Under the pieces are notes generated by a model. The model saw only the letters and a list, made by a program, of their open reading frames with translations, had not been told where the DNA came from and made no database searches. Made by a program: the position numbers and the translations under genes. A DNA stretch of 64,000 bases. Source: Minisyncoccia bacterium. Lineage in GTDB: Bacteria; Patescibacteriota; Minisyncoccia; Phycocordibacterales; UBA9973. The stretch covers positions 94,492 through 158,491 of the forward strand of contig JBAQNN010000002.1 in assembly GCA_049303835.1 (NCBI GenBank), read 5' to 3'. This document shows, piece after piece, positions 3,465-35,100 of this stretch (its first letter is position 1; each line of letters opens with the position of its first letter).

Positions 3465-4690
3465 TTTAGAAAGTTTCTATTCCTCATATTTTTATGATAA
3501 GCGATAGCAAAGCGGTGAGATTCACTGTTTGCTAATAAAATTTCTTTTTTATATTTCAACCCAAACTCTCTATCCCCCATTATTGCTCTGGCTTTATGAT
3601 GTTCATCTTTTACAACTGAGACTACCGGGATATTTATTTTTAATTTATTTAAAATTTTTCTAGCAATATTTATTTGCGCCATACCGCCATCCACCACTAT
3701 CAAATTCGGGTAAGTCCATTCTGTGTGGGCAAGGCGTCTTTCCAATACTTCTTTCAAGGCTCCAGTATCGTTCGCATCAGTTTGCGTTCTAATTTTAAAT
3801 TTTTTATATTCATTTTTTACCACTTCCCCATCTTCCATCACCACCATGACCCCCACCATATTTTTGCCACCCATATGCGCAATATCATAAGCCTCTATAC
3901 GAGCTCCTGAAACAAGAAAATTTTTATTCGTGTGGGCCCCGCCCGGTACTCCGGGAAGGGAGGAACGAGAAAAATTTTCTTGTTTCAGGAGTGCCACATC
4001 GTTTATGTGCTTCAGTGCAAACATTTGTCTCTTTATTTCCCCCGCTTTCTCAAATTCCTGCTTTTTAGCATACTCTTGCATTTCTTTTTTAAGATTTTTA
4101 AAAATTCTTTTCTTTTTACCCTCAAAAAACAAAATAATATTTTTTATATTTTGTTTATATAATTTTTTATCGTTCAAATCAGGAACCAGGTTTATCTGTT
4201 TATAAAATTCCAAATAGTTCTTGCTTTTCTCGTCCAAAAATGGAAAAATCCTTCGTACTATTTTTAAAGCTTCTCTGAGTTGGGAGCCATTCGGGTAAGG
4301 TCCAAAAACGTTCTTTTCATTTTTTAAATTTTTTCCTCTAACAATAATTACTTTTGGAAGTTGTTCGTCTGTGACACAAACATAATTAAAACTTTTATCC
4401 GATTTTTCTTTAGTATTATACTTCGGCTGATGTTTTTTAATGAGTTTTGCTTCCAGAATAAGCGCTTCCAAGACACTGTCTGTGATCTGCCATTTTATTT
4501 TATCCGCCTTAAAAACCATATCCACTAAGATGGGTCCCCTCGTCTGTATCAAGTCTTTCCCAAAATAACTTCTCACCCTATCTTTAAGCGACGTAGCTTT
4601 GCCAATGTAAATGATTTTCCCTTTTTCTAAGAAAAAATAGACACCGGAATTATCAGGTATTTTAAATTTTTTTAGATTTTTACTATTCAT
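3461..4690 (-). CDS. uvrC: excinuclease ABC subunit C (short form: GIY-YIG + UvrC endonuclease domain, no C-terminal HhH)
   Basis: N-terminal GIY-YIG (GVYFF...IYIGKATSLKDRVRSYF), UvrBC motif region, RNaseH-like C-domain (AYDIAHMGG). Directly downstream of uvrA. Confidence 0.8.
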   Translation of the reverse strand: MNSKNLKKFKIPDNSGVYFFLEKGKIIYIGKATSLKDRVRSYFGKDLIQTRGPILVDMVFKADKIKWQITDSVLEALILEAKLIKKHQPKYNTKEKSDKSFNYVCVTDEQLPKVIIVRGKNLKNEKNVFGPYPNGSQLREALKIVRRIFPFLDEKSKNYLEFYKQINLVPDLNDKKLYKQNIKNIILFFEGKKKRIFKNLKKEMQEYAKKQEFEKAGEIKRQMFALKHINDVALLKQENFSRSSLPGVPGGAHTNKNFLVSGARIEAYDIAHMGGKNMVGVMVVMEDGEVVKNEYKKFKIRTQTDANDTGALKEVLERRLAHTEWTYPNLIVVDGGMAQINIARKILNKLKINIPVVSVVKDEHHKARAIMGDREFGLKYKKEILLANSESHRFAIAYHKNMRNRNFLK

Positions 4691-22875: not shown

Positions 22876-23973
22876 TTATCTATTCATTGGCATAATGAGA
22901 TAGGTAAAAGAAGAATCAGAGACCGGGGATACAACCATAGGACTTCCTGTGCCGGAGAGTTTTATAGAAACACTATCAGTGACAATTGACTGAAAACAGT
23001 CCAAAAAGTATTTATAGTTGAAAGAAAGTTCTATGTTTTCACCGTTTATAACGGCATCTAAATAAGTTTTATTTTCTCCCACATCGTTGTTGGAAGATGA
23101 AAACTCTAAAATCTTTTCTTTTGGAATAATCTTTAAATTAACTTGATTAAACTTGTCTGAAAAGATATTAGACAACTTTAAGGCATTCAATAAATCTTGT
23201 TTGAGAACCACTACCTCCGTAGTTGTGTTTTTGGGAATAATTTGACGATAATCTGGAAAAATACCGTCAATTATTCGTGAAGTTAAGTAAATGTTATCAG
23301 AAGAAAGTGAAATTTGATTTTTATTAAAACAAACCTTTAGGACCCCCTGAAATTCCCCAAAAACCTTCAAAATTTCAGCTATGTTTTTATAAGGAACAAG
23401 AATACCTGAAATTTCCTCAACCCCCTTCGCTTTTACCTTTTTTTCGGCCAACCTAAAAGAATCTGTTGAAACAAAAACCAAATTATCTCCGTTGGTATAT
23501 ATAAAAACACTTGAAATTTCTGGCTTTATATCGGAAACAGAGGAGCTATAATAAACTGATTTAATTCCCTCAATAAGTTTTTTTGATTCTATTTCAAAAC
23601 TTGTTCCCGTCACAGTGGGAATGGTTGGAAAATCTTCGTGAGGCTGACATTTTAATCTTATTTGACTTTTTTTTGTTTTAATTAAAAGATTTTCATCCTT
23701 TTTTTCCAACTGAACATTTTCATTTTGAGAAACGTTGGAAAAAATAGCGTTTAGCACCGAACCTGAGATAGCCAAAGTTCCTTCTTTTTCTATTTTAGCT
23801 GAAATTTCAACTTCAATACCCAAGTTTAAGTTGGTGGATCTCATTTTTAATGATTTACCCGAAGCAATCAATAAAATTGAGCTTAAAACGGGAAGGGTTA
23901 GATTTTTGCCGGTAATTCTCTCTACTTGAGATATTCCATTTTTGAGTTTTTCAACCGAACATTCTATTTTCAT
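22876..23973 (-). CDS. dnaN: DNA polymerase III beta sliding clamp
   Basis: 365 aa, three-domain beta clamp pattern, located immediately downstream of dnaA. Confidence 0.85.
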   Translation of the reverse strand: MKIECSVEKLKNGISQVERITGKNLTLPVLSSILLIASGKSLKMRSTNLNLGIEVEISAKIEKEGTLAISGSVLNAIFSNVSQNENVQLEKKDENLLIKTKKSQIRLKCQPHEDFPTIPTVTGTSFEIESKKLIEGIKSVYYSSSVSDIKPEISSVFIYTNGDNLVFVSTDSFRLAEKKVKAKGVEEISGILVPYKNIAEILKVFGEFQGVLKVCFNKNQISLSSDNIYLTSRIIDGIFPDYRQIIPKNTTTEVVVLKQDLLNALKLSNIFSDKFNQVNLKIIPKEKILEFSSSNNDVGENKTYLDAVINGENIELSFNYKYFLDCFQSIVTDSVSIKLSGTGSPMVVSPVSDSSFTYLIMPMNR

Positions 23974-24212
23974 ATATTTGTTTATATCTTATATAAATAA
24001 ATTATTAGTAATATTAGTGTTGTTAATAAGTGGATAATTATTTTTATATTTATTAAATATACTTATTTTTAATTTATAAACTGAACTTAAATCTAATAAC
24101 TTTTTGTCTTATGTTTATGAAAATATTTTTTATTTTTAATTTTTCTTTTTATTCGCGTTAATTAACAGATTTTGTCTGGTTTGTTATATTGTTTTTCCCT
24201 ACTTATAAACAG
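23974..24212. promoter_or_regulatory. candidate oriC part: very AT-rich dnaA-dnaN spacer (DNA unwinding element) with an 8/9 DnaA box at 24030-24038
   Basis: Long runs of TTTTTA/ATTTTT, gtggataat = ATTATCCAC. Confidence 0.5.
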
Positions 24213-25556
24213 CTATTTAAACATAATTCTTATTTGTTCCAACTCTTGCAGCAACGAAGAATCATTTTTTAAGTCAGTTTTTATTTTTAAACAAGAGTGG
24301 ATGACTGTCGTGTGATCCTTTCCCCCCAATTTTTGTCCAATTAGCGGATAAGATACATTAAAGTCTTCTCGGAGTAGATACATGACTACTTGTCTTGCTC
24401 TGACTATTTCCTTTTTTCTTGTTTTCTCATAAATTGAAGATTCTTCCAATTTATAATATTCACTCACTATCTTTACTACATCCTTTATGGCCATGTTTTT
24501 CTTTGGTCTAAGGTTGTTTTTGAGTAGATTTTTTACCTCTACAAGCGTCAATGGTTTGTTTTTTAGTTTATATTGGCAAACAATAAGGTTAAGACTTCCT
24601 TCCAGCTCCCTGATGTTTCCCTGAACTGCCCCCGCCACGTAATCTATCACCTCCTCAGCCAAATCAACATTTAATTCACGGAGTTTAACCTTTAAAATAG
24701 CCAGACGTGACTCATATTCAGGCTCAGATATGTCAACGATCATACCAGCAGCAAAACGAGACTTTAGTCTATCCGCCAGCTCTGGAATGTAGTTTGGGTG
24801 TTTGTCTGAAGAAAAGATAATCTGTTTGTTGTTTTCATAAAAAGTGTTAAATGTGTGAAAAAGTTCTTCTTGAATTTTTTCCATTTTTCCAATGAATTGG
24901 ATATCGTCTATTATTAACAGGTCGTATTTACGATATTTTTCTTTAAAAGAATTTGCTTTGTTGTTTTGGAGTGAATTTACAAAATCTGTGGCAAATTTTT
25001 CCAAGGTCATATAGTGTACCTTTTTATTTGGATATTTTTCTTTTATTGAGTTTCCCACCGCCTGAATCAAGTGTGTTTTTCCTAGTCCAGTACCTCCATA
25101 AATAAAAAATGGGTTATATTTTGTTCCAGGAGAGTCTATTATTGCCTGGGCTGCAGCATAAGCGAGCTCATTGAAAGTTCCGACGATAAACGAATTGAAT
25201 TGATAGCGTGGATTTAGGTTGTCTTCCAGATTTATGTATAAATCTTTTAGGGGTAGTTCTTTTTCTATGGTTATTTCATTTATTGGCGCTGGTTCTTGTT
25301 TTACATTTTCTGTTTTAACAATAGTATATTCTACGGCACGCATATTTTCATAGGCATCGGCAATGGTTTTGGTTATCAATTTGTGATATTTATTGATAAG
25401 CCAGTCGCGGACGAACTCGTTTGGCACCCCAATATAAACAATACCGGTATCTTCTTTTATGATGGATGTGTTTTTAAACCAGGTACTAAAATTTGCTTTT
25501 GATATACCAGATTCTATTTCCATTAGACAACTTTTCCACAACTCTTTTGTATTCAT
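24213..25556 (-). CDS. dnaA: chromosomal replication initiator protein DnaA
   Basis: 447 aa; AAA+ GGTGLGKTHL, DDIQF, C-terminal helix-turn-helix DnaA signature (LIGQKLGGKDHTTVIHS). Confidence 0.95.
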   Translation of the reverse strand: MNTKELWKSCLMEIESGISKANFSTWFKNTSIIKEDTGIVYIGVPNEFVRDWLINKYHKLITKTIADAYENMRAVEYTIVKTENVKQEPAPINEITIEKELPLKDLYINLEDNLNPRYQFNSFIVGTFNELAYAAAQAIIDSPGTKYNPFFIYGGTGLGKTHLIQAVGNSIKEKYPNKKVHYMTLEKFATDFVNSLQNNKANSFKEKYRKYDLLIIDDIQFIGKMEKIQEELFHTFNTFYENNKQIIFSSDKHPNYIPELADRLKSRFAAGMIVDISEPEYESRLAILKVKLRELNVDLAEEVIDYVAGAVQGNIRELEGSLNLIVCQYKLKNKPLTLVEVKNLLKNNLRPKKNMAIKDVVKIVSEYYKLEESSIYEKTRKKEIVRARQVVMYLLREDFNVSYPLIGQKLGGKDHTTVIHSCLKIKTDLKNDSSLLQELEQIRIMFK

Positions 25557-25710
25557 TGTTTTTATCTTACACTATTTATAAAACAGGGGGTATATGTAAT
25601 ATCTTATTAACTATGTTGATAAGCTGTGGATAAGTTTGTTGCCGGCATGATTTGTTTATCACACAAGACTTGGATTTGATAAAAACCGGATGATGTTATA
25701 TACTACCTGT
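25557..25710. promoter_or_regulatory. dnaA upstream region with perfect DnaA box TGTGGATAA (25625-25633) and GATAAG repeats; candidate oriC part / dnaA autoregulation
   Basis: Exact reverse complement of TTATCCACA. Confidence 0.5.
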
Positions 25711-29016: not shown

Positions 29017-29994
29017 TTATCTGCCATCCACTGACCAATGCCAAGGTTCGGATGGTAAGTTAGAAAGACCGTATTTACCGGCATTTGCTTGTAGCCACAC
29101 AAAGCACTTATTATCGCGGGTTTGAATAAATTTTCCATCACACTGTAGATCAAATGCCTTGCCATGGTTGTGATTTGATTGACCTGGAAGAGCTGTGGGT
29201 GGATTACATTTTGCACTTGCGTTTTCGTAGTCTCCATTACAATATTTTATTCTTAATTGTTTCTGTTGTTCTGTAGATCTATATCCCCCACCTGTTATGT
29301 TTAATCCGGCACTTTTTGATGCAACTAGCATGGCGTTAATGTTTGAAACAATATCTTTACATGCAAACATGCTAATTTGGGTTTTTACCACTCCGGCGCT
29401 ACATCCAGATGTAACTCCTGGGGGGTTCCCAGAATCGCTTGCTATTGCGTCTGCTAGTGTTACCTCTACTGTTATTTTTTCTAAACTACTCAGATCAGTC
29501 TTTAGAATATCTGGATTTATTTGGTTTAAGATTGTCCAAGCGCCCAAAGCGAGCACAAGTCCAAAAATAGCGCCAGTGATTCTATGTTTACCGTTTTCTT
29601 TATTAGATATCAGTTCACTAGTCATATACTCCAAACCACCCACCACTATCATTATCACAGCCAACACAGCGCATATACCGATGAAAATACGTATCATTAT
29701 GTTCAAATACTCACCTATTTTGGAATTTTCTCCCTCTGCGCTTGTCGGGTCAAAGGTTTTTAGTTGTCCATCTTCACACCCAGGAGTACCTTTTTCACAA
29801 GGCAGAGGGGCTAAAAAATTATATTTCAAATCATTTTCTTGTGTAGCATTTACGCAGGACACCCCATCAGGAGCAAGTATTTTATCTCCTGTGCATTCAA
29901 CTGCCAAAACAGAGTTGGTGGAGACAAAAAAACTAAAGATTAAAAAAACCAATTGTAATGAGACTATTATCTTTTTAAGCATATCTTTTTTCAT
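29017..29994 (-). CDS. VirB2/TrbC-like pilin region fused to M15 (VanY/LAS) D-Ala-D-Ala peptidase domain
   Basis: Signal peptide, Cys-rich segment, two TM helices with Gly-rich turn (IVVGGLEYM...GAIFGLVLALGAW) as in T4SS pilins. C-terminal zinc-peptidase motif SNHNHGKAFDL plus GGGYRS. Confidence 0.45.
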   Translation of the reverse strand: MKKDMLKKIIVSLQLVFLIFSFFVSTNSVLAVECTGDKILAPDGVSCVNATQENDLKYNFLAPLPCEKGTPGCEDGQLKTFDPTSAEGENSKIGEYLNIMIRIFIGICAVLAVIMIVVGGLEYMTSELISNKENGKHRITGAIFGLVLALGAWTILNQINPDILKTDLSSLEKITVEVTLADAIASDSGNPPGVTSGCSAGVVKTQISMFACKDIVSNINAMLVASKSAGLNITGGGYRSTEQQKQLRIKYCNGDYENASAKCNPPTALPGQSNHNHGKAFDLQCDGKFIQTRDNKCFVWLQANAGKYGLSNLPSEPWHWSVDGR

Positions 29995-30980: not shown

Positions 30981-31045
30981 AACTCAGCCTAATTATATCA
31001 TATCTGCTTTACAACTTTATAACTTTCAACTTTTGAACTTTATAA

Positions 31046-32893
31046 CTATTGTTTACCCTCAGTTTCCGCTCTCTCCTGCTCCTCCTTGGCTTTTCTGTTT
31101 GAAAGTATTTGGGAAGGGTCGGAAGTGATTATCTGGTCTTCAGTATAAGAAGAAATGACTTTTATGGCTACATGCTTTAGGCCGGCAAAGAATATTCCCT
31201 CCCCGAGGCCTGACTCCAAAAGCAGATATTTTTCTTCATCCGTCAGGTTGAAGGTTTTTTGTAAAATATCTATAGTGGTCGGTGATTGTTTAAGGAGAAG
31301 TTGAATAGAAGAGTTTGTAATGATGGGGACACCATAAGGAGATTTCATAAAGTCGGCGGCGTCTTGGGTGATGGTGGAAAGACCGAGATAATATTTTCTA
31401 CCTCTTTTGGCGATAGAGTATAAGAATGAAGCGGTGTCTTCAGATTTCATCATCCACCAAGCCTCATCTACTACCAAGAGGCGCTTTTTCAAATTTTTTC
31501 GTACGGTATTCCAGATATAATGCATGATGATATACATGGCGACGGGTTTTAACTCGTCTTCCATGTCGCGGACGGAAAATACTACGAATTTTTTATTGAT
31601 ATCCACATTGGACGGTCTGTTTAAGAATGTCGCCCAAGAACCCCTCGTATATTTGGCTAGTCTGGTGACGATTGAATCACTTCCATCCATCCCTCCGAGC
31701 ACCATTTCAAAATCTGACAGAAGAGGAGGTTCAATGTTTGAGAAATCAGATTCAGGAGTGATATCTTTCATCGCATAAGTTTCGGAAATAGCTCGGTCTA
31801 CCATTGAATCTTCTTCAGGGGTGAGTCCGCCTAGCATCAATCTGAAAAGCCCTACCAAGTTTATGATATTTGAACGGAGGACATCTTCGGCTGTTTCGCC
31901 TTCGTGAGGAATAGGTAAATCAAAAGGATTGATGTGGTGATCGGAAGAAAGAGAAATATTGAAATATCTTCCACCGACCGCCTCTGACAAGAACTCGTAT
32001 TCCCTTTCCGGATCTATCACTATGACATCAACATCAAACATTAAAGATCTCAAAATTTCTAGCTTAGTGGCATACGATTTTCCGGAGCCGGACTTGGCAA
32101 AGGTCACGGAGTTGTAATTCTCTAGTGAAAATCTATCAAAGATGACTAGGCTGGAATTGTGCCTGTTGATGCCGTAAAGTATTCCTTTGTTGGAAGTCAG
32201 GTCAAAAGAAATAAATGGGAATACACTACTAAGTGGTTCAGAATTCAACTTCTGATGAATACCAAGTATGTCTGTATTTATGGGTATGACGCTCTTAAAA
32301 CCGTCTTCTTGTTGGAAGAGAGCCGGTTTGATATAGATGAGTTTTGATTCAAGGATTGATTTTATCTCATTTTCTATTTTGAAAAGTTCCAACTCGTTGT
32401 CGGCATAAATGGTGATGTAAATACCCACATCAAACATTTTTTCTTGCGCTTGGATCAGATTATTGCGCAGGCCCTCTAGGTCTTGGTAGGCAGTATCAAG
32501 CATAGGGTCGCGCACCATACCCTTACTCTCTCGTACACTTATCTGACTCTGCACCTCGGCGACTTTTTTCTGAAATTGTCTCAAGACCAGAGAAGTGTCT
32601 ATCGGATGAATAAAAATTGAAATATCAAAAACTTTATCCAGATTGATTATAGGAGAGAACCAATTGTCTGTCAGAAATCTAGGATAGGAAATGATGAAAA
32701 AAGTACGAGCGATTTTATCTCCCAAGCTTATGGATTTAGACGATATTTTCAGAGCTGAAGGAGCGATGACATCTTGGAGCTCCAGGGTGGCGGATTGGTA
32801 GATTTCTTCCGGCATCACTGCCAAGACGGAAGCTCTCACTTCCTTTTCCTCCCCTCCTTTTTGTCCACCTAATAATTTTTTTAAAAAGTCCAT
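31046..32893 (-). CDS. virB4: VirB4/TraC-family type IV secretion ATPase (C-terminal 615-aa portion)
   Basis: Walker A TFAKSGSGKSY, Walker B LLVVDEAWWMM, VirB4-type N-flank ...LGDKIARTFFIISYP... Confidence 0.8.
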   Translation of the reverse strand: MDFLKKLLGGQKGGEEKEVRASVLAVMPEEIYQSATLELQDVIAPSALKISSKSISLGDKIARTFFIISYPRFLTDNWFSPIINLDKVFDISIFIHPIDTSLVLRQFQKKVAEVQSQISVRESKGMVRDPMLDTAYQDLEGLRNNLIQAQEKMFDVGIYITIYADNELELFKIENEIKSILESKLIYIKPALFQQEDGFKSVIPINTDILGIHQKLNSEPLSSVFPFISFDLTSNKGILYGINRHNSSLVIFDRFSLENYNSVTFAKSGSGKSYATKLEILRSLMFDVDVIVIDPEREYEFLSEAVGGRYFNISLSSDHHINPFDLPIPHEGETAEDVLRSNIINLVGLFRLMLGGLTPEEDSMVDRAISETYAMKDITPESDFSNIEPPLLSDFEMVLGGMDGSDSIVTRLAKYTRGSWATFLNRPSNVDINKKFVVFSVRDMEDELKPVAMYIIMHYIWNTVRKNLKKRLLVVDEAWWMMKSEDTASFLYSIAKRGRKYYLGLSTITQDAADFMKSPYGVPIITNSSIQLLLKQSPTTIDILQKTFNLTDEEKYLLLESGLGEGIFFAGLKHVAIKVISSYTEDQIITSDPSQILSNRKAKEEQERAETEGKQ

Positions 32894-32975
32894 AATTGTA
32901 TTTAGGCTTTAGCTTTTAGGCTCTAGGCTCTAGCTTTTGAGTTTGCTAATGCCTAAGGCCTAGTTGCCTAGCGCC
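32894..32975. repeat. heptamer-repeat palindromic element A ([T/C][T/C]TAGGC arrays inverted against GCCTA[A/G] arrays)
   Basis: tttaggctttagcttttaggctctaggctctagc...gcctaaggcctagttgcctagcgcc; separates the two VirB4 ORFs. Confidence 0.7.
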
Positions 32976-33614
32976 CTACTCTATTTTAATCTTACCCTCC
33001 AATTCTCCGGGGTTGAAAACTTTATAAAATACTTCCACTACTTCTTCGGTATTCAGCTGGGCCGAATTTATTCCACAACGAGACAATCCTTGCTGGATGA
33101 CAGCTACCCTCTCTTCTAGTTGAGATCTCTTCTCTTCAAAATCTATCTGTTTTGCGGCTCGCACTTCTTCTGAATTCTTTTTGGAAAATAGCTTTCCCAA
33201 TATCCCGGAATCTGATTTTAAAGTTGTACGTGAATATGGTATTACAATAAAGAAGTTTTTTGTCATGATACTGACAGATTCAGTAAAGCTTCTTATAAAC
33301 TCTATATATTCCCTAGTTTGCAACTTGATCAACGGCTCATTTTGCACTTTTACTCTGTTTTCTAAAAGGAGTAAATAAGGTCTGATGTCCAGCCTTCTGG
33401 ATTGGACTGATATCTGTACCGGAAAATCCAAGGTGTTTAAAAAATTTTGAAATTGAAGAATGGTCGCATGTTGTTCATCGGAAGATTTCAAGGATAGGTT
33501 GACCGAGTTTGCGAGTACGATGGCTCGGAGCTCACCTTCTTTTAGCACGATGATGCCATCGCGTATCTCTTTGATTGGTATAAATTCTTGTGTTGCTTTT
33601 GCTTTTAATGCCAT
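32976..33614 (-). CDS. probable VirB4 N-terminal domain encoded as a separate 212-aa ORF
   Basis: N-terminus TQEFIPIKEIRDGIIVLKEGELRAIV...SSDEQ resembles the start of Gram-positive PrgJ/TcpF-type VirB4. 212+615 aa approximates full-length VirB4. Confidence 0.45.
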   Translation of the reverse strand: MALKAKATQEFIPIKEIRDGIIVLKEGELRAIVLANSVNLSLKSSDEQHATILQFQNFLNTLDFPVQISVQSRRLDIRPYLLLLENRVKVQNEPLIKLQTREYIEFIRSFTESVSIMTKNFFIVIPYSRTTLKSDSGILGKLFSKKNSEEVRAAKQIDFEEKRSQLEERVAVIQQGLSRCGINSAQLNTEEVVEVFYKVFNPGELEGKIKIE

Positions 33615-33701
33615 AAATTTTTTCTAGGGCTTTAGGCTCTAGGCGTTAGGCTTTAGCTTTTGTTTCGCTAGAGCCTAGTGCCTAAGGCCTAGCTGCCTGC
33701 A
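33615..33701. repeat. heptamer-repeat palindromic element B (long imperfect hairpin, ~26 bp stem with G-T wobble positions)
   Basis: ctagggctttaggctctaggcgttaggctttagc-ttttgtttc-gctagagcctagtgcctaaggcctagctgcctgca; right arm overlaps last codons of the upstream gene. Confidence 0.7.
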
Positions 33702-34141
33702 TTTTTCTTTTTACTCAAATCAAGCACGTCCAAGCTCCAGGCCAAATCTCGCAACCTACTTCCATCCAATTTTGAACTGACATTTGGCAGTACTTCATTT
33801 TTATTTTCATCCATGTTTGTAGTTTGCGATTTATTATTTGCTACCCTACCGGTCTTCTTCTTCCAAATATAAAGTTTGTTTTGAGAAAAATATTTAAACC
33901 CTGCTTCAATCATGTTTATAAAAGGCTTATTGTTTGGTTTATAGAAAGTAAGAGCTAAAGAAAACCCGGCGATAATCAAAATAGGGATGGCGCTAAAGAC
34001 GAGCCCTAATAATTTATAAAGCACAAAACACAAACCTGCTCCGCCGGCCAAATAAGCAAACTCCCTAAAAGTAAAAGGGCCGAATATTTTATCTTCTATT
34101 TCTAAAAATTGTGGAACCTTGAATTGCATAAATACAGGCAC
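33689..34141 (-). CDS. VirB3/PrgI-like small T4SS membrane protein
   Basis: 150 aa; N-terminal EDKIFGPFTFREFAYLAGGAG followed by two TM helices, adjacent to VirB4. GTG start with an ATG 4 codons in. Confidence 0.45.
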   Translation of the reverse strand: MPVFMQFKVPQFLEIEDKIFGPFTFREFAYLAGGAGLCFVLYKLLGLVFSAIPILIIAGFSLALTFYKPNNKPFINMIEAGFKYFSQNKLYIWKKKTGRVANNKSQTTNMDENKNEVLPNVSSKLDGSRLRDLAWSLDVLDLSKKKNAGS

Positions 34142-34166
34142 TAGGCTTTAGGCGCTAGGCTCTAGC
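34141..34166. repeat. heptamer-repeat element C (CTAGGCT TTAGGCG CTAGGCT CTAGC), single-orientation copy
   Basis: Overlaps the stop region of the four-helix-bundle gene (encodes its C-terminal ...QLEPSA) and the start of the VirB3-like gene. Confidence 0.65.
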
Positions 34167-34507
34167 TGAGAAATTAGTTTATTCAACATTTTCATAATTT
34201 CTTCTAATAAAGAACCCACTTTATTATAATCTAATTTTGCAGTTTTGGGTAATTTTTTAGATATTATTAGCTGAGTTTCTAGCTCCGCACCAGAAGCAAA
34301 GGCAATAAGTAAGAATCTTTTGAATTCTGGAATTCCTCCTCGCATTTTCCCTTCTGCAATATTAGAAGGTATGGATACTGCCGCCCTACGAATTTGTGAG
34401 GTTAAACCATAAATTTCTTCCTTCGAAAATTTGTCTGTGAGTTCATAAACTGCTATTACAAGCTCTATCGATTTTTGCCACACGACTAAATCTCTATATG
34501 TTTTCAT
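34148..34507 (-). CDS. four-helix-bundle protein (23S rRNA intervening-sequence protein / Avd-like family, PF05635-type)
   Basis: 119 aa; YRDLVVWQKSIELVIAVYELT...FSKEEIYGLTSQIRRAAVSIPSNIAEG is the signature N-terminal block of this family. Confidence 0.7.
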   Translation of the reverse strand: MKTYRDLVVWQKSIELVIAVYELTDKFSKEEIYGLTSQIRRAAVSIPSNIAEGKMRGGIPEFKRFLLIAFASGAELETQLIISKKLPKTAKLDYNKVGSLLEEIMKMLNKLISQLEPSA

Positions 34508-34517
34508 GTGTTTTTTA

Positions 34518-34542
34518 CTAGCGCCTAATGCCTAGAGCCTAG
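34518..34542. repeat. heptamer-repeat element D (CTAGCGCCTAATGCCTAGAGCCTAG), inverted relative to element C
   Basis: Reverse complement CTAGGCTCTAGGCATTAGGCGCTAG pairs with element C across the 119-aa gene. Confidence 0.65.
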
Positions 34543-34548
34543 AAAATA

Positions 34549-35100
34549 TTACTCCGGTATCTCCCTATACGGATCAATTTTAGGAACATCTGCTCTATTT
34601 CCACTGGTCTTTTCTTCTTTAGTAATATTTTCTATTGAGTGGTCCGTCTCTACAACAGGATTTTTTACAAGGCCGGATAGTTTTTGGGCCAAAATGGGAT
34701 GTGGAGAATCTATCTCCAGTTTTTCCGGCACAATCTCAATCCCAGCGGATTTTAGTATCTCTGTGTCGTTCTCCTCTTCTTTTATCTTTGATGAATCTAT
34801 TAATTTTTCTCGGATTTCCTTCAATATTTTTTCATTAACGTCATTTACTATGGTGTGGATTTTTTCCTCCGGCAGTTTTAGACTGTTTCTGACCGACTCT
34901 TCAAATTTATCCGGATGAGTAAACCCAAACATCACCATGTGTGTCTCAAGTGACAATTGACCCATCTGTTCTACGTTTAGATTTTCTTTTTGACCTATTT
35001 CTATAATGTTATCGTCCACATTGGCCGCCATGATTGACCATTTTAGGTCTTCCGGCAAGCTCTCAAATTTTTTTTGTATTTCTTCTAATGATATTTCCAT
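34549..35100 (-). CDS. hypothetical acidic protein (183 aa)
   Basis: No recognisable family; part of the T4SS-like operon. Confidence 0.4.
   Translation of the reverse strand: MEISLEEIQKKFESLPEDLKWSIMAANVDDNIIEIGQKENLNVEQMGQLSLETHMVMFGFTHPDKFEESVRNSLKLPEEKIHTIVNDVNEKILKEIREKLIDSSKIKEEENDTEILKSAGIEIVPEKLEIDSPHPILAQKLSGLVKNPVVETDHSIENITKEEKTSGNRADVPKIDPYREIPE

Follow-up and report, generated by a model that had tools for sequence, protein, structure and literature searches.

The junctions of a type IV secretion system (T4SS) operon on the Minisyncoccia contig JBAQNN010000002.1 carry four arrays of degenerate heptamers, here called A, B, C and D, within a 64-kb stretch of DNA that we refer to as the window (position 1 is its first letter). 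C and D enclose a gene for a small four-helix-bundle (FHB) protein of the type encoded in intervening sequences (IVSs) of 23S rRNA, and A and B are short palindromes without a gene. A–D constitute an IVS-like FHB cassette with relics that resemble MITEs (miniature inverted-repeat transposable elements), and belong to a widespread class. We consider it probable that such an IVS-like selfish element is present here in three copies, one of them complete and two truncated to MITE-like relics.

Fourteen of the 15 matches to the heptamer-pair pattern YYTAGGCKYTAGGC in the 64 kb (two mismatches or fewer) lie inside A–D, between 32.9 and 34.5 kb; in the shuffled window, the mean number of matches was 2.96 and the maximum 8. 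Tandem Repeats Finder reported period-7 arrays at each of the four. A previous reading of the window from its letters alone (hereafter the sequence-only reading) had described the four elements and the restriction of the degenerate heptamers to this locus. Its coordinates were retained except for the end of C, which was corrected to 34136, and the pattern search of the window agreed with its statement that copies are missing elsewhere in the 64 kb, where neither further A–D arms nor a second FHB gene were found. The repeat alignment sorts the arms into two families, with the left arms of A, B and C in the first and the right arms of A, B and D in the second. The minus strand carries all genes of the A–D region, and the plus strand is antisense. 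The order of transcription is a 999-aa VirB6-like protein, a 183-aa protein, D, the 119-aa FHB protein, C, a PrgI/VirB3-like protein, B, a 212-aa TrsD/TraC-like protein, A and a 615-aa VirB4 ATPase.

The FHB protein matched Pfam PF05635 (E = 6e-36), NCBIfam TIGR02436 (E = 2e-34) and PDB 2GSC (XCC0516; E = 4e-22), and a 100% identical NCBI protein is on record (P0001). Its gene is bordered by the cassette arms, ~30-nt inverted arrays of four to five YYTAGGC heptamers. The 3′ arm reads CTA-GA-GCCTA-GC-GCCTA-AA-GCCTA-GT-GCC in sense and encodes the final FHB residues ...LEPSA and the stop codon; an overlap of C with the end of the gene had been noted before and amounts to the last six codons plus the stop. 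C and D are complementary over 25 nt at 84% or over 23 nt at 91%, 352–359 nt apart, and the predicted RNA fold of 34125–34560 (minus strand) pairs D with C around the open reading frame (ORF). The sequence-only reading had treated them as single inverted arms ~350 bp apart; orientation and distance hold, but the link between the two had been missed. We conclude with high confidence that C and D belong together as the arms of one element enclosing the FHB gene and are not separate elements. The dN/dS ratio of the FHB gene against its orthologues is 0.08–0.10, and to judge from the sequences it encodes a working protein. Its number of synonymous substitutions per site (dS) between the window and the related locus L268 is 0.7, lower than the 2.9 of the neighbouring gene; the cassette may be of more recent origin than the sequences around it, or have been homogenised with respect to them.

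This layout resembles the ORF-bearing 23S rRNA IVSs of Leptospira and Coxiella, in which the loop of a terminal-repeat stem of ~25–30 bp contains a PF05635 ORF; the window cassette has both the PF05635 ORF and terminal inverted repeats with a stem of at least 20 bp. In Coxiella burnetii, a 28-bp terminal stem surrounds the S23p ORF, three to four tandem GACAGAT heptamers are located in the 5′ arm, RNase III cuts at the first heptamer repeat and the number of heptamers varies among strains (PMC4990558). ORF-bearing 23S rRNA IVSs are regarded as selfish and horizontally acquired (PMC4990558). The heptamers noted in this single Coxiella IVS are the sole precedent that we found (PMC4990558): the literature searched contained no paper tying PF05635 genes in general to heptamer arrays or gene-less derivatives, although one may exist in journals outside it. 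In contrast to the 23S rRNA IVSs, which occupy helix 9, 25 or 45, the window cassette sits between protein genes of an mRNA operon, namely the 183-aa gene and PrgI, and an Rfam scan found no rRNA in the window. Unlike in the Coxiella IVS, with its 5′-arm heptamers and decaying ORF, both arms are heptamer arrays and the FHB is under strong purifying selection. A further difference from 23S rRNA IVSs is the presence of gene-less derivatives in the neighbouring junctions. Against the curated families of Rfam 15, positions 32700–34700 gave chance-level matches only (E ≥ 0.7, ~40 or more bits under the gathering scores), and a promoter scan found no promoter-like site on the gene strand in or beside the arms.

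The derivatives A and B contain recognisable pieces of the cassette. B consists of a 5′ arm, an A-rich loop and a 3′ arm with an in-frame KLKPNA* remnant, and the PrgI stop codon TAG (33689–33691) lies within its outermost heptamer; an overlap with the last codons of this gene had been seen in the sequence-only reading. A retains a KLEPRA* remnant and starts directly after the TAG stop of the TraC-like gene (32976–32978), which reads as a degenerate first unit of the 5′ array. An element at an unrelated locus in a Nomurabacteria metagenome-assembled genome (L008:3902) matches the 5′ arm of the window A without a difference over 25 nt. We compared 13 gene-less copies from the candidate phyla radiation (CPR), oriented with the A-rich loop, i.e., in host sense. 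They have in common a 5′ arm TAGGC-CT-TAGGC-AC-TAGGC-xC-TAGC, followed by the A-rich loop, and a 3′ arm GCTA-AA-GCCTA-AC-GCCTA-GA-GCCTA. In the frame of the FHB 3′ arm, these copies encode xL(K/E)P(N/S/R/K)A*, i.e., the FHB C terminus, as the 3′ arm of FHB genes in the window clade codes for a terminal L(E/K/A)P(S/N/K)A*. The codon before the remnant is ATG (MLKPNA*) in L009, both L011 copies and L268, and AAG in the window A and B. The loop of B in L268, TAGC-AAAACAAATG-CTAAAGCC, matches TAGC-AAAACCAATG-AAAAC, the leader with the start codon in the FHB cassette that lies 0.5 kb upstream. With arms, a leader-like loop and the last five to six FHB codons in frame, A and B thus read as FHB cassettes minus nearly the whole ORF. 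On these sequence comparisons, our confidence is high both in the identities of the parts and in the relationship, which would make A and B MITE-like internal-deletion derivatives of the FHB cassette.

As expected of MITEs, A and B have their terminal inverted repeats in common with a longer element that bears a gene, and they also keep remnants of its interior. This partner encodes only the FHB protein and no transposase, and the comparison of empty with filled sites revealed no clear target-site duplication. The arm units differ at two of seven positions, and orthologous copies from four genomes have them in the same order. Neisseria Correia elements as well as repetitive extragenic palindromes (REPs) and the REPINs formed from them are short non-autonomous palindromes in operon spacers, co-transcribed and potential RNase III or stability sites. 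A and B are likewise short palindromic derivatives in intra-operon spacers. In contrast to MITEs and REPINs, their full-length partner has no recognisable transposase or REP-associated tyrosine transposase (RAYT) and encodes nothing but a 119-aa helical bundle protein, and in contrast to REPs, the arms of A–D are four to five tandem heptamers with CTAG/TTAG instead of a GTAG head.

Gain, loss and re-colonisation in orthologous operons

Four close FHB homologues were looked up (P0005, P0039, P0060 and P0101; 80–91% identity), and all four are encoded at the same site of orthologous CPR T4SS operons; the cassette layout is common to this site in L258, L268, L300 and L306. According to protein identities, L258 is the outgroup, and L011 and L268 are sisters. 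L258, the window and L268 have the cassette, and L011 lacks it together with its arms (18-nt spacer). Its presence in both the sister L268 and the outgroup L258 implies that L011 has lost it cleanly. B is present in the window, L011, L268 and L014 and absent in L258 (TAA AT ATG), L300 and L307. The window and L011 also have A, which is absent in L258 (TAA TATT ATG) and in L014 and L303 (both TAA TT ATG); the A site of L268 may contain a remnant. The A of L011 belongs to a different subfamily from that of the window. Hence, presence/absence polymorphism exists at all three junctions of the orthologous operons. The outermost heptamer supplies the host gene's stop codon, TAG, at most filled sites, and the downstream ATG follows 3–9 nt after the last arm unit; the empty sites consist of TAA, 2–4 nt and ATG.

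Where B is present, it is highly conserved. The four orthologous copies are 94–98% identical, with identical inner three heptamers in each arm and all differences confined to the loop and the outermost units. For comparison, the adjoining TraC-like gene has ~50% identity at third codon positions (dS at least 2). Such conservation next to a saturated neighbour means that the arms, non-Watson-Crick positions included, are either selected for their sequence or continually re-templated from a conserved source.

A second array family occurs at the same kind of site. L306 and L307 are identical in 1047 of 1047 nt over the FHB gene and the upstream gene compared. Their PrgI-TraC junction is empty in L307 and filled in L306 by a palindrome of a different repeat (AAAGT/ACTTT, 7–8-nt period), the core of which is also the core of a solo array in the window (31007–31047). 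As far as the sequences tell, stop-start junctions are colonised repeatedly, and by at least two array families. In the same pair, identity amounts to 96% in PrgI and to only 92% in the first 460 nt of the TraC-like gene, and this sequence comparison suggests a recombination breakpoint at or near the array-bearing PrgI-TraC junction. At the TraC-VirB4 junction of L306 (~4050–4093), a perfect 18-bp hairpin is formed from one TAGGC unit (AGCTAGGCAAGACCTAAC ATG TTAGGTCTTGCCTAGCT) and may be a minimal or decayed family member. Some orthologous T4SS operons (L300–L303, ~1180–1790) harbour a further selfish module, a BrnT/CopG-type toxin-antitoxin pair located two genes upstream of the cassette.

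FHB genes and heptamer arrays in other genomes

An exact 24-mer from B was found at 17 loci in species-representative genomes, mostly of CPR and also of Acidobacteriales, Bacteroidaceae and Planctomycetales. The contexts of B-type arms are operon junctions, such as rpsG-fusA, rplN-rplX, rpsM-rpsK, secD-secF and downstream of groEL. The same arms at unrelated junctions, the presence/absence at three junctions of the T4SS operon and the independent colonisation by subfamilies speak for a miniature mobile repeat family, which was among the roles proposed by the sequence-only reading. Among the matches listed, the generic arm TAGGCNNTAGGCNNTAGGC is very widespread in metagenome and viral collections. 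A convergent inverted partner was detected for 76 of the 203 TAGGCNNTAGGCNNTAGGC arrays listed, compared with 16 of 203 on the control side. Arms mostly have three to five units (mode four), and the loops of these inverted pairs are mostly 12–110 nt long, with a second cluster at 374–450 nt. Therein, gaps of 374–385 nt hold FHB genes; in the two loci with gaps of 439–450 nt (L145, L228), a phage head-completion gene is flanked on each side by a palindrome of its own.

From the side of the protein, 20 FHB genes were chosen by homology alone (14 from plasmids, 6 from viral contigs), and a search with a five-sequence FHB profile yielded 8 viral loci. Gene flanks were scored for ungapped complementarity against shuffles and an independent set of 58 control genes. 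Inverted flanking arrays were present at 13 of the 20 genes (18–24 of 24, above all shuffles) and direct arrays at two (22 of 24), and most of the others have a one-sided array; only one of the 58 control genes reached 18 of 24. Periodicity in the FHB flanks was raised at lag 7 and at no other lag. FHB and control genes could not be told apart by the energy of RNA duplexes between their flanks, a measure confounded by GC-rich flanks and shared intergenic arrays.

The 20 genes come from Cyanobacteria, Bacteroidota, Proteobacteria and viral contigs and are flanked by different repeats: GGTTYAA in Riemerella (L282), GGACRGA in Azospirillum (L281), GGAGATAA in Picosynechococcus (L283), GGTGACA in Anabaena (L298) and, in Nostoc, GGGAGTA (L292), CAGGAGT (L293, L295 and L296), GGGAACA (L294) or GGGAAAA (L297). 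Orthologous FHBs have their heptamer in common, and the two paralogues in Nostoc sp. ATCC 53789 differ; array type thus tracks the FHB clade, not the host. Like the window cassette, several of these insertions lie between operon genes, i.e., cas10-cmr3, cas6-cas4 (twice), nrdA-nrdB and conjugation genes. In Xanthomonas campestris, XCC0516 is the FHB that has been crystallised; the published GGGAATC repeat #15 is located between its gene and bccP and overlaps the XCC0516 start. PF05635 proteins are very common (at least 7996 matches at E ≤ 0.001).

Three FHB cassettes are wedged between CRISPR genes (L283 on a Picosynechococcus plasmid, L298 in Anabaena sp. 90 and L299 in Pseudanabaena). A large-scale survey lists '23S rRNA IVP' among CRISPR-linked domains (PMC10910872), and such wedged cassettes may explain its appearance as a CRISPR-associated domain. 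In a Saccharibacteria locus (L012, 5945–6042), the loop of a TAGGC palindrome contains a second, perfect G+C-rich hairpin (AAGGGAACGGCCACGC...GCGTGGCCGTTCCCTT), nested in the first.

Heptamer arrays as such have been described repeatedly. The GGGAATC repeats of Xanthomonas and GGGGAYT repeats of Nostoc have been reported to form G-quadruplexes, with 70–75 convergent pairs per Xanthomonas genome and a mode of four units (PMC4692102); TAACTGA heptamer repeats have been reported (PMC4679880), and heptamer simple-sequence repeats are over-represented in many bacteria (PMC4692102, PMC4679880). In Geobacter metallireducens, paired 7–8-mers between genes such as proB-proA were proposed to be sites of a global regulator (PMC2700814). 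Together with the cyanobacterial short tandemly repeated repetitive (STRR) sequences, these families resemble the arrays described here, being intergenic, with ~4 × 7 nt per array and often in convergent pairs; they also lie near the end of the upstream ORF and sometimes within one operon (PMC4692102, PMC2700814), and the FHB genes of Nostoc are flanked by STRR-like arrays. The published families differ from ours in that they have been read as G-quadruplexes, regulator sites or typing markers, without a link to PF05635, and in that the window heptamer is YYTAGGC. The heptamer families have so far received unrelated interpretations, and the FHB-array class apparently has not been unified.

Strand asymmetry, alternative explanations and mechanism

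Folding was computed for both strands. B is clearly stable, with -44.2 kcal/mol on the plus strand (z -4.4) and -34.8 on the minus strand (z -3.4), whereas A, also called a long imperfect palindrome in the sequence-only reading, is only marginally so (-31.2 on plus, z -1.9; -31.4 on minus, z -2.7). The G-T mismatches in B had been interpreted as wobble pairs of a plus-strand transcript. They are indeed transitions (G:U on the plus strand, C.A on the minus strand), but the plus-strand transcript is the antisense one and not the operon mRNA. In ~13 of 13 low-GC copies with clear host orientation, the strand antisense to the host genes forms the RNA hairpin of greater stability, and the spacer positions that pair as G.U in antisense are C.A or A.C in the host mRNA. 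Among the spacer pairs of all palindromes, 54% were Watson-Crick (39% in shuffles), 31% transition-type mismatches (19%) and 15% other (42%). The asymmetry belongs to the family consensus and did not arise separately in each copy. Insertions may be tolerated only in the orientation that gives the weaker mRNA hairpin, or the relevant hairpin could be on the template DNA strand; as the operon is probably co-directional with replication, to judge from the GC-skew minimum and the gene-strand switch near 49–53 kb, readings based on the orientation of transcription and of replication are confounded.

Several findings count against a mobile selfish element acting through its RNA stem. The stems in the operon mRNA carry conserved C.A and A.C mismatches and are weaker than the antisense ones, and spacer pairing is poor in FHB-bearing copies, both of which argue against perfect double-stranded RNA as the selected feature. 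Some FHB genes have arrays in direct orientation (L042 ~690–1140, L280 and L299) or on one side only, so the stem is not obligatory for the association between FHB and arrays. The FHB gene was not found near most metagenomic and viral TAGGC arrays, a weak negative obtained with a narrow local HMM. Neither a transposase nor a target-site duplication or other mobility signature was found, and the window FHB clade is stably resident at one T4SS operon site; part of the pattern could therefore have arisen by vertical inheritance, deletion and gene conversion, with no true transposition involved. As to the direct arrays, those of Pseudanabaena (L299) reach 14 × GCTAAAA upstream and 10 × GCCAAAA downstream.

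Among the alternatives, a domesticated regulator overlaps with the selfish cassette and differs in who benefits: the FHB ring would bind tandem heptamers on RNA or single-stranded DNA, as TRAP does, and the gene-less arrays would be operator sites through which the host controls the flanked genes post-transcriptionally. The strong purifying selection on FHB and its stable maintenance in the operon fit this proposal, as do the conservation of arm sequence instead of arm pairing, the modal four-unit arms (mostly three to five) alongside the homopentameric homologues XCC0516 and Avd, of which Avd contacts RNA, and the similar paired arrays of Geobacter (PMC2700814). Yet no function unites the genes next to the arrays (T4SS, ribosomal proteins, CRISPR-Cas, nrd, phage heads), the sites are missing from close relatives, and L011 retains A and B although its local FHB is gone. 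We consider domestication unlikely, and that the element is selfish or mobile instead is a conclusion of moderate confidence.

Equally improbable in our assessment are REP/REPIN-like or IS200/IS605-type single-stranded DNA hairpins mobilised in trans by a Y1/RAYT transposase, with FHB as a passenger or landing site. Imperfect intergenic palindromes inside operons, G.T-tolerant pairing on one strand in consistent orientation to the genes and the presumed direction of replication, and cores of high-GC relatives that read GTAGGC and recall the GTAG head of REPs would suit such elements. However, no transposase-like gene adjoins any examined copy, and none was found among the ORFs scanned around the operon (22.9–29.0, 30.0–46.0 and 46.3–48.7 kb); the co-variation of heptamer type with FHB clade instead of host, the FHB remnants in gene-less copies and the tandem heptamers in place of a single REP hairpin also disagree with this origin.

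We give little credence to purpose-built cis-regulatory RNA hairpins that evolved in place in the T4SS operon next to an unrelated FHB gene. While the folds beat shuffles, the elements are placed exactly at cistron junctions and B is highly conserved among orthologues, the same arms recur at unrelated junctions elsewhere (the ribosomal and sec contexts above and phage head genes), close relatives have 2–4-nt junctions instead of A, B or both, A and B contain FHB coding remnants, and the helix is weaker on the mRNA-sense strand. Moreover, the terminator scan detected no terminator-like site at A–D on either strand, and we rejected intrinsic terminators and the transcriptional attenuators suggested by the sequence-only reading.

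Plain slippage of simple-sequence repeats without function or mobility is very unlikely: heptamer repeats are over-represented in many bacteria (PMC4692102, PMC4679880) and heptamer number varies in the Coxiella IVS, but the non-identical units keep their order between orthologous and dispersed copies, inverted pairs are in excess (76 vs 16 of 203 arrays listed), arm lengths are tightly distributed and conservation is far above neutral. The possibility raised by the sequence-only reading that the arrays are ubiquitous simple-sequence repeats is thus half right, for they are very widespread but structured, with a conserved order of non-identical units.

Three further candidates were rejected. 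FHB shares its four-helix bundle with Avd of diversity-generating retroelements, a homologous, positively charged pentamer that contacts RNA (10.1101/2023.10.23.563531), and close FHB homologues match PF22296 (bAvd). However, no reverse transcriptase or template/variable repeat pair is present near the window FHB gene, its neighbours are T4SS genes, and the NCBIfam Avd model scored 16.4 bits against a cutoff of 80. Integron attC sites are likewise imperfect palindromes between co-oriented genes, with the attC hairpin formed by the strand complementary to the mRNA; here, R''/R' GTTRRRY core sites are missing (the boundaries are TAGGC/GCCTA), no integrase was found among the neighbours, there is no cassette array, and unlike in integron cassettes the genes flanked by A–D form a conserved T4SS operon. 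The similarity to eukaryotic telomere repeats (TTTAGGC/TTAGGC) was set aside as coincidence.

Returning to the selfish IVS-like cassette, the following course appears plausible. Family members would insert or be copied into very short stop-start junctions of co-transcribed genes. Each arm contains TAG or TAA every 7 nt and closes all three frames within three units in either orientation, which stops upstream translation in any frame. The elements would be co-transcribed with the operon, and pairing of the arms in its mRNA would juxtapose the upstream stop and the downstream start at the base of the stem, so that coupling could survive and the insertion be tolerated. By analogy with the S23p-bearing 23S rRNA IVSs, the stem is a probable RNase III substrate. 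The arms appear to be kept by a sequence-specific constraint, most likely a protein that reads 5-nt cores spaced by two variable nucleotides. As its homologue Avd contacts RNA, the basic, pentameric FHB itself is the prime candidate for this reader. Our confidence in RNase III processing and in FHB-heptamer recognition, which both draw on analogy, is low to moderate.

More tentatively, PF05635 proteins and ~7-nt tandem arrays might form one pan-bacterial mobile or selfish class without a recognisable transposase, in which the pentameric FHB ring reads four to five heptamers on single-stranded RNA or DNA, one per subunit (as TRAP reads its triplets), and thereby drives copying, retention or processing, both of cassettes with the gene and of the much more numerous arrays without it; we regard this as possible but doubtful. 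If true, 23S rRNA IVSs, cyanobacterial STRR, Xanthomonas 'G4' repeats and Geobacter 'global regulator sites' would fall into a single class, and a function would be found for a small protein family that is among the commonest of those still uncharacterised. Already the locus and its relatives point to a protein gene and arrays that form one unit and spawn gene-less palindromes, which repeatedly colonise operon stop-start junctions in CPR, cyanobacteria, Bacteroidota, Proteobacteria and phage-like contigs. The 23S rRNA IVS then becomes a special case of a general element, and the role of S23p/FHB becomes directly testable through binding of its own heptamer and RNase III processing. Annotators should be cautious, as such intra-operon hairpins are probably parasitic insertions, not operon-specific regulators.

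Host operon and neighbouring features

Table 1. Elements and host genes of the T4SS operon region (window coordinates)
Feature	Position	Strand	Evidence or remark
Complete cassette: D 5′ arm, 10-nt A-rich leader, FHB gene, C 3′ arm	34136..34543	-	complementary arms, RNA fold, relatives
D, cassette 5′ arm, sense CTAGGC-TC-TAGGC-AT-TAGGC-GC-TAG	34518..34543	-	
FHB gene, 119-aa four-helix-bundle / 23S rRNA-IVS protein	34148..34507	-	PF05635, TIGR02436
C, cassette 3′ arm, encodes FHB C terminus ...QLEPSA + stop	34136..34166	-	
B, gene-less palindrome between PrgI/VirB3-like and TraC-like genes	33615..33701	-	
A, gene-less palindrome, second subfamily, between TraC-like gene and VirB4	32894..32975	-	
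PrgI/VirB3-like host gene	33689..34129	-	PF12666 E=1e-8; ATG by comparison with relatives
TrsD/TraC-like host gene, 212 aa, VirB4 N-terminal domain as separate gene	32976..33614	-	NCBIfam TrsD E=3e-6
VirB4-like ATPase host gene (CD1110 family), 615 aa	31046..32893	-	NF045971 E=1e-108
Host gene upstream of cassette, 183 aa, no family	34549..35100	-	
Solo array, second repeat family (N)NAAAGTT, 7–8-nt period, 5 units	31007..31047	-	directly after VirB4 stop codon

The start codon of PrgI is probably the ATG at 34129 (MQFKVPQF, as in relatives) and not the GTG at 34141. VirB4 is split into the TrsD/TraC-like N-terminal protein and the ATPase, encoded in different frames, in all relatives. As the split is kept even in relatives with a 2–4-nt junction, it is natural and not due to element A. 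The TraC-like protein of the window also matches VirB4 N termini, and its orthologues carry PF26593.

The solo array in the gap between VirB4 and a 328-aa gene has the units TTATAAAG TTCAAAAG TTGAAAG TTATAAAG TTGTAAAG, followed by TATGATATAAT (a -10-like hexamer). By its sequence, it looks like a solo arm of the second array family, the AAAGT core of which forms the full inverted palindrome in L306. Downstream of the operon, positions 29017–29994 encode a 325-aa protein with a T4SS pilin domain (PF18895) and a VanY D-Ala-D-Ala carboxypeptidase domain, possibly a wall-remodelling pilin fusion.

Finally, dnaN and dnaA are located at 22876–25556, with DnaA-box-like repeats at 25614–25633. The minimum of the cumulative GC skew, a switch of the gene strand, perfect DnaA boxes (48780, 53004 and 55081) and a tRNA cluster are found at ~49–55 kb, and the replication origin of this genome may lie elsewhere than next to dnaA.

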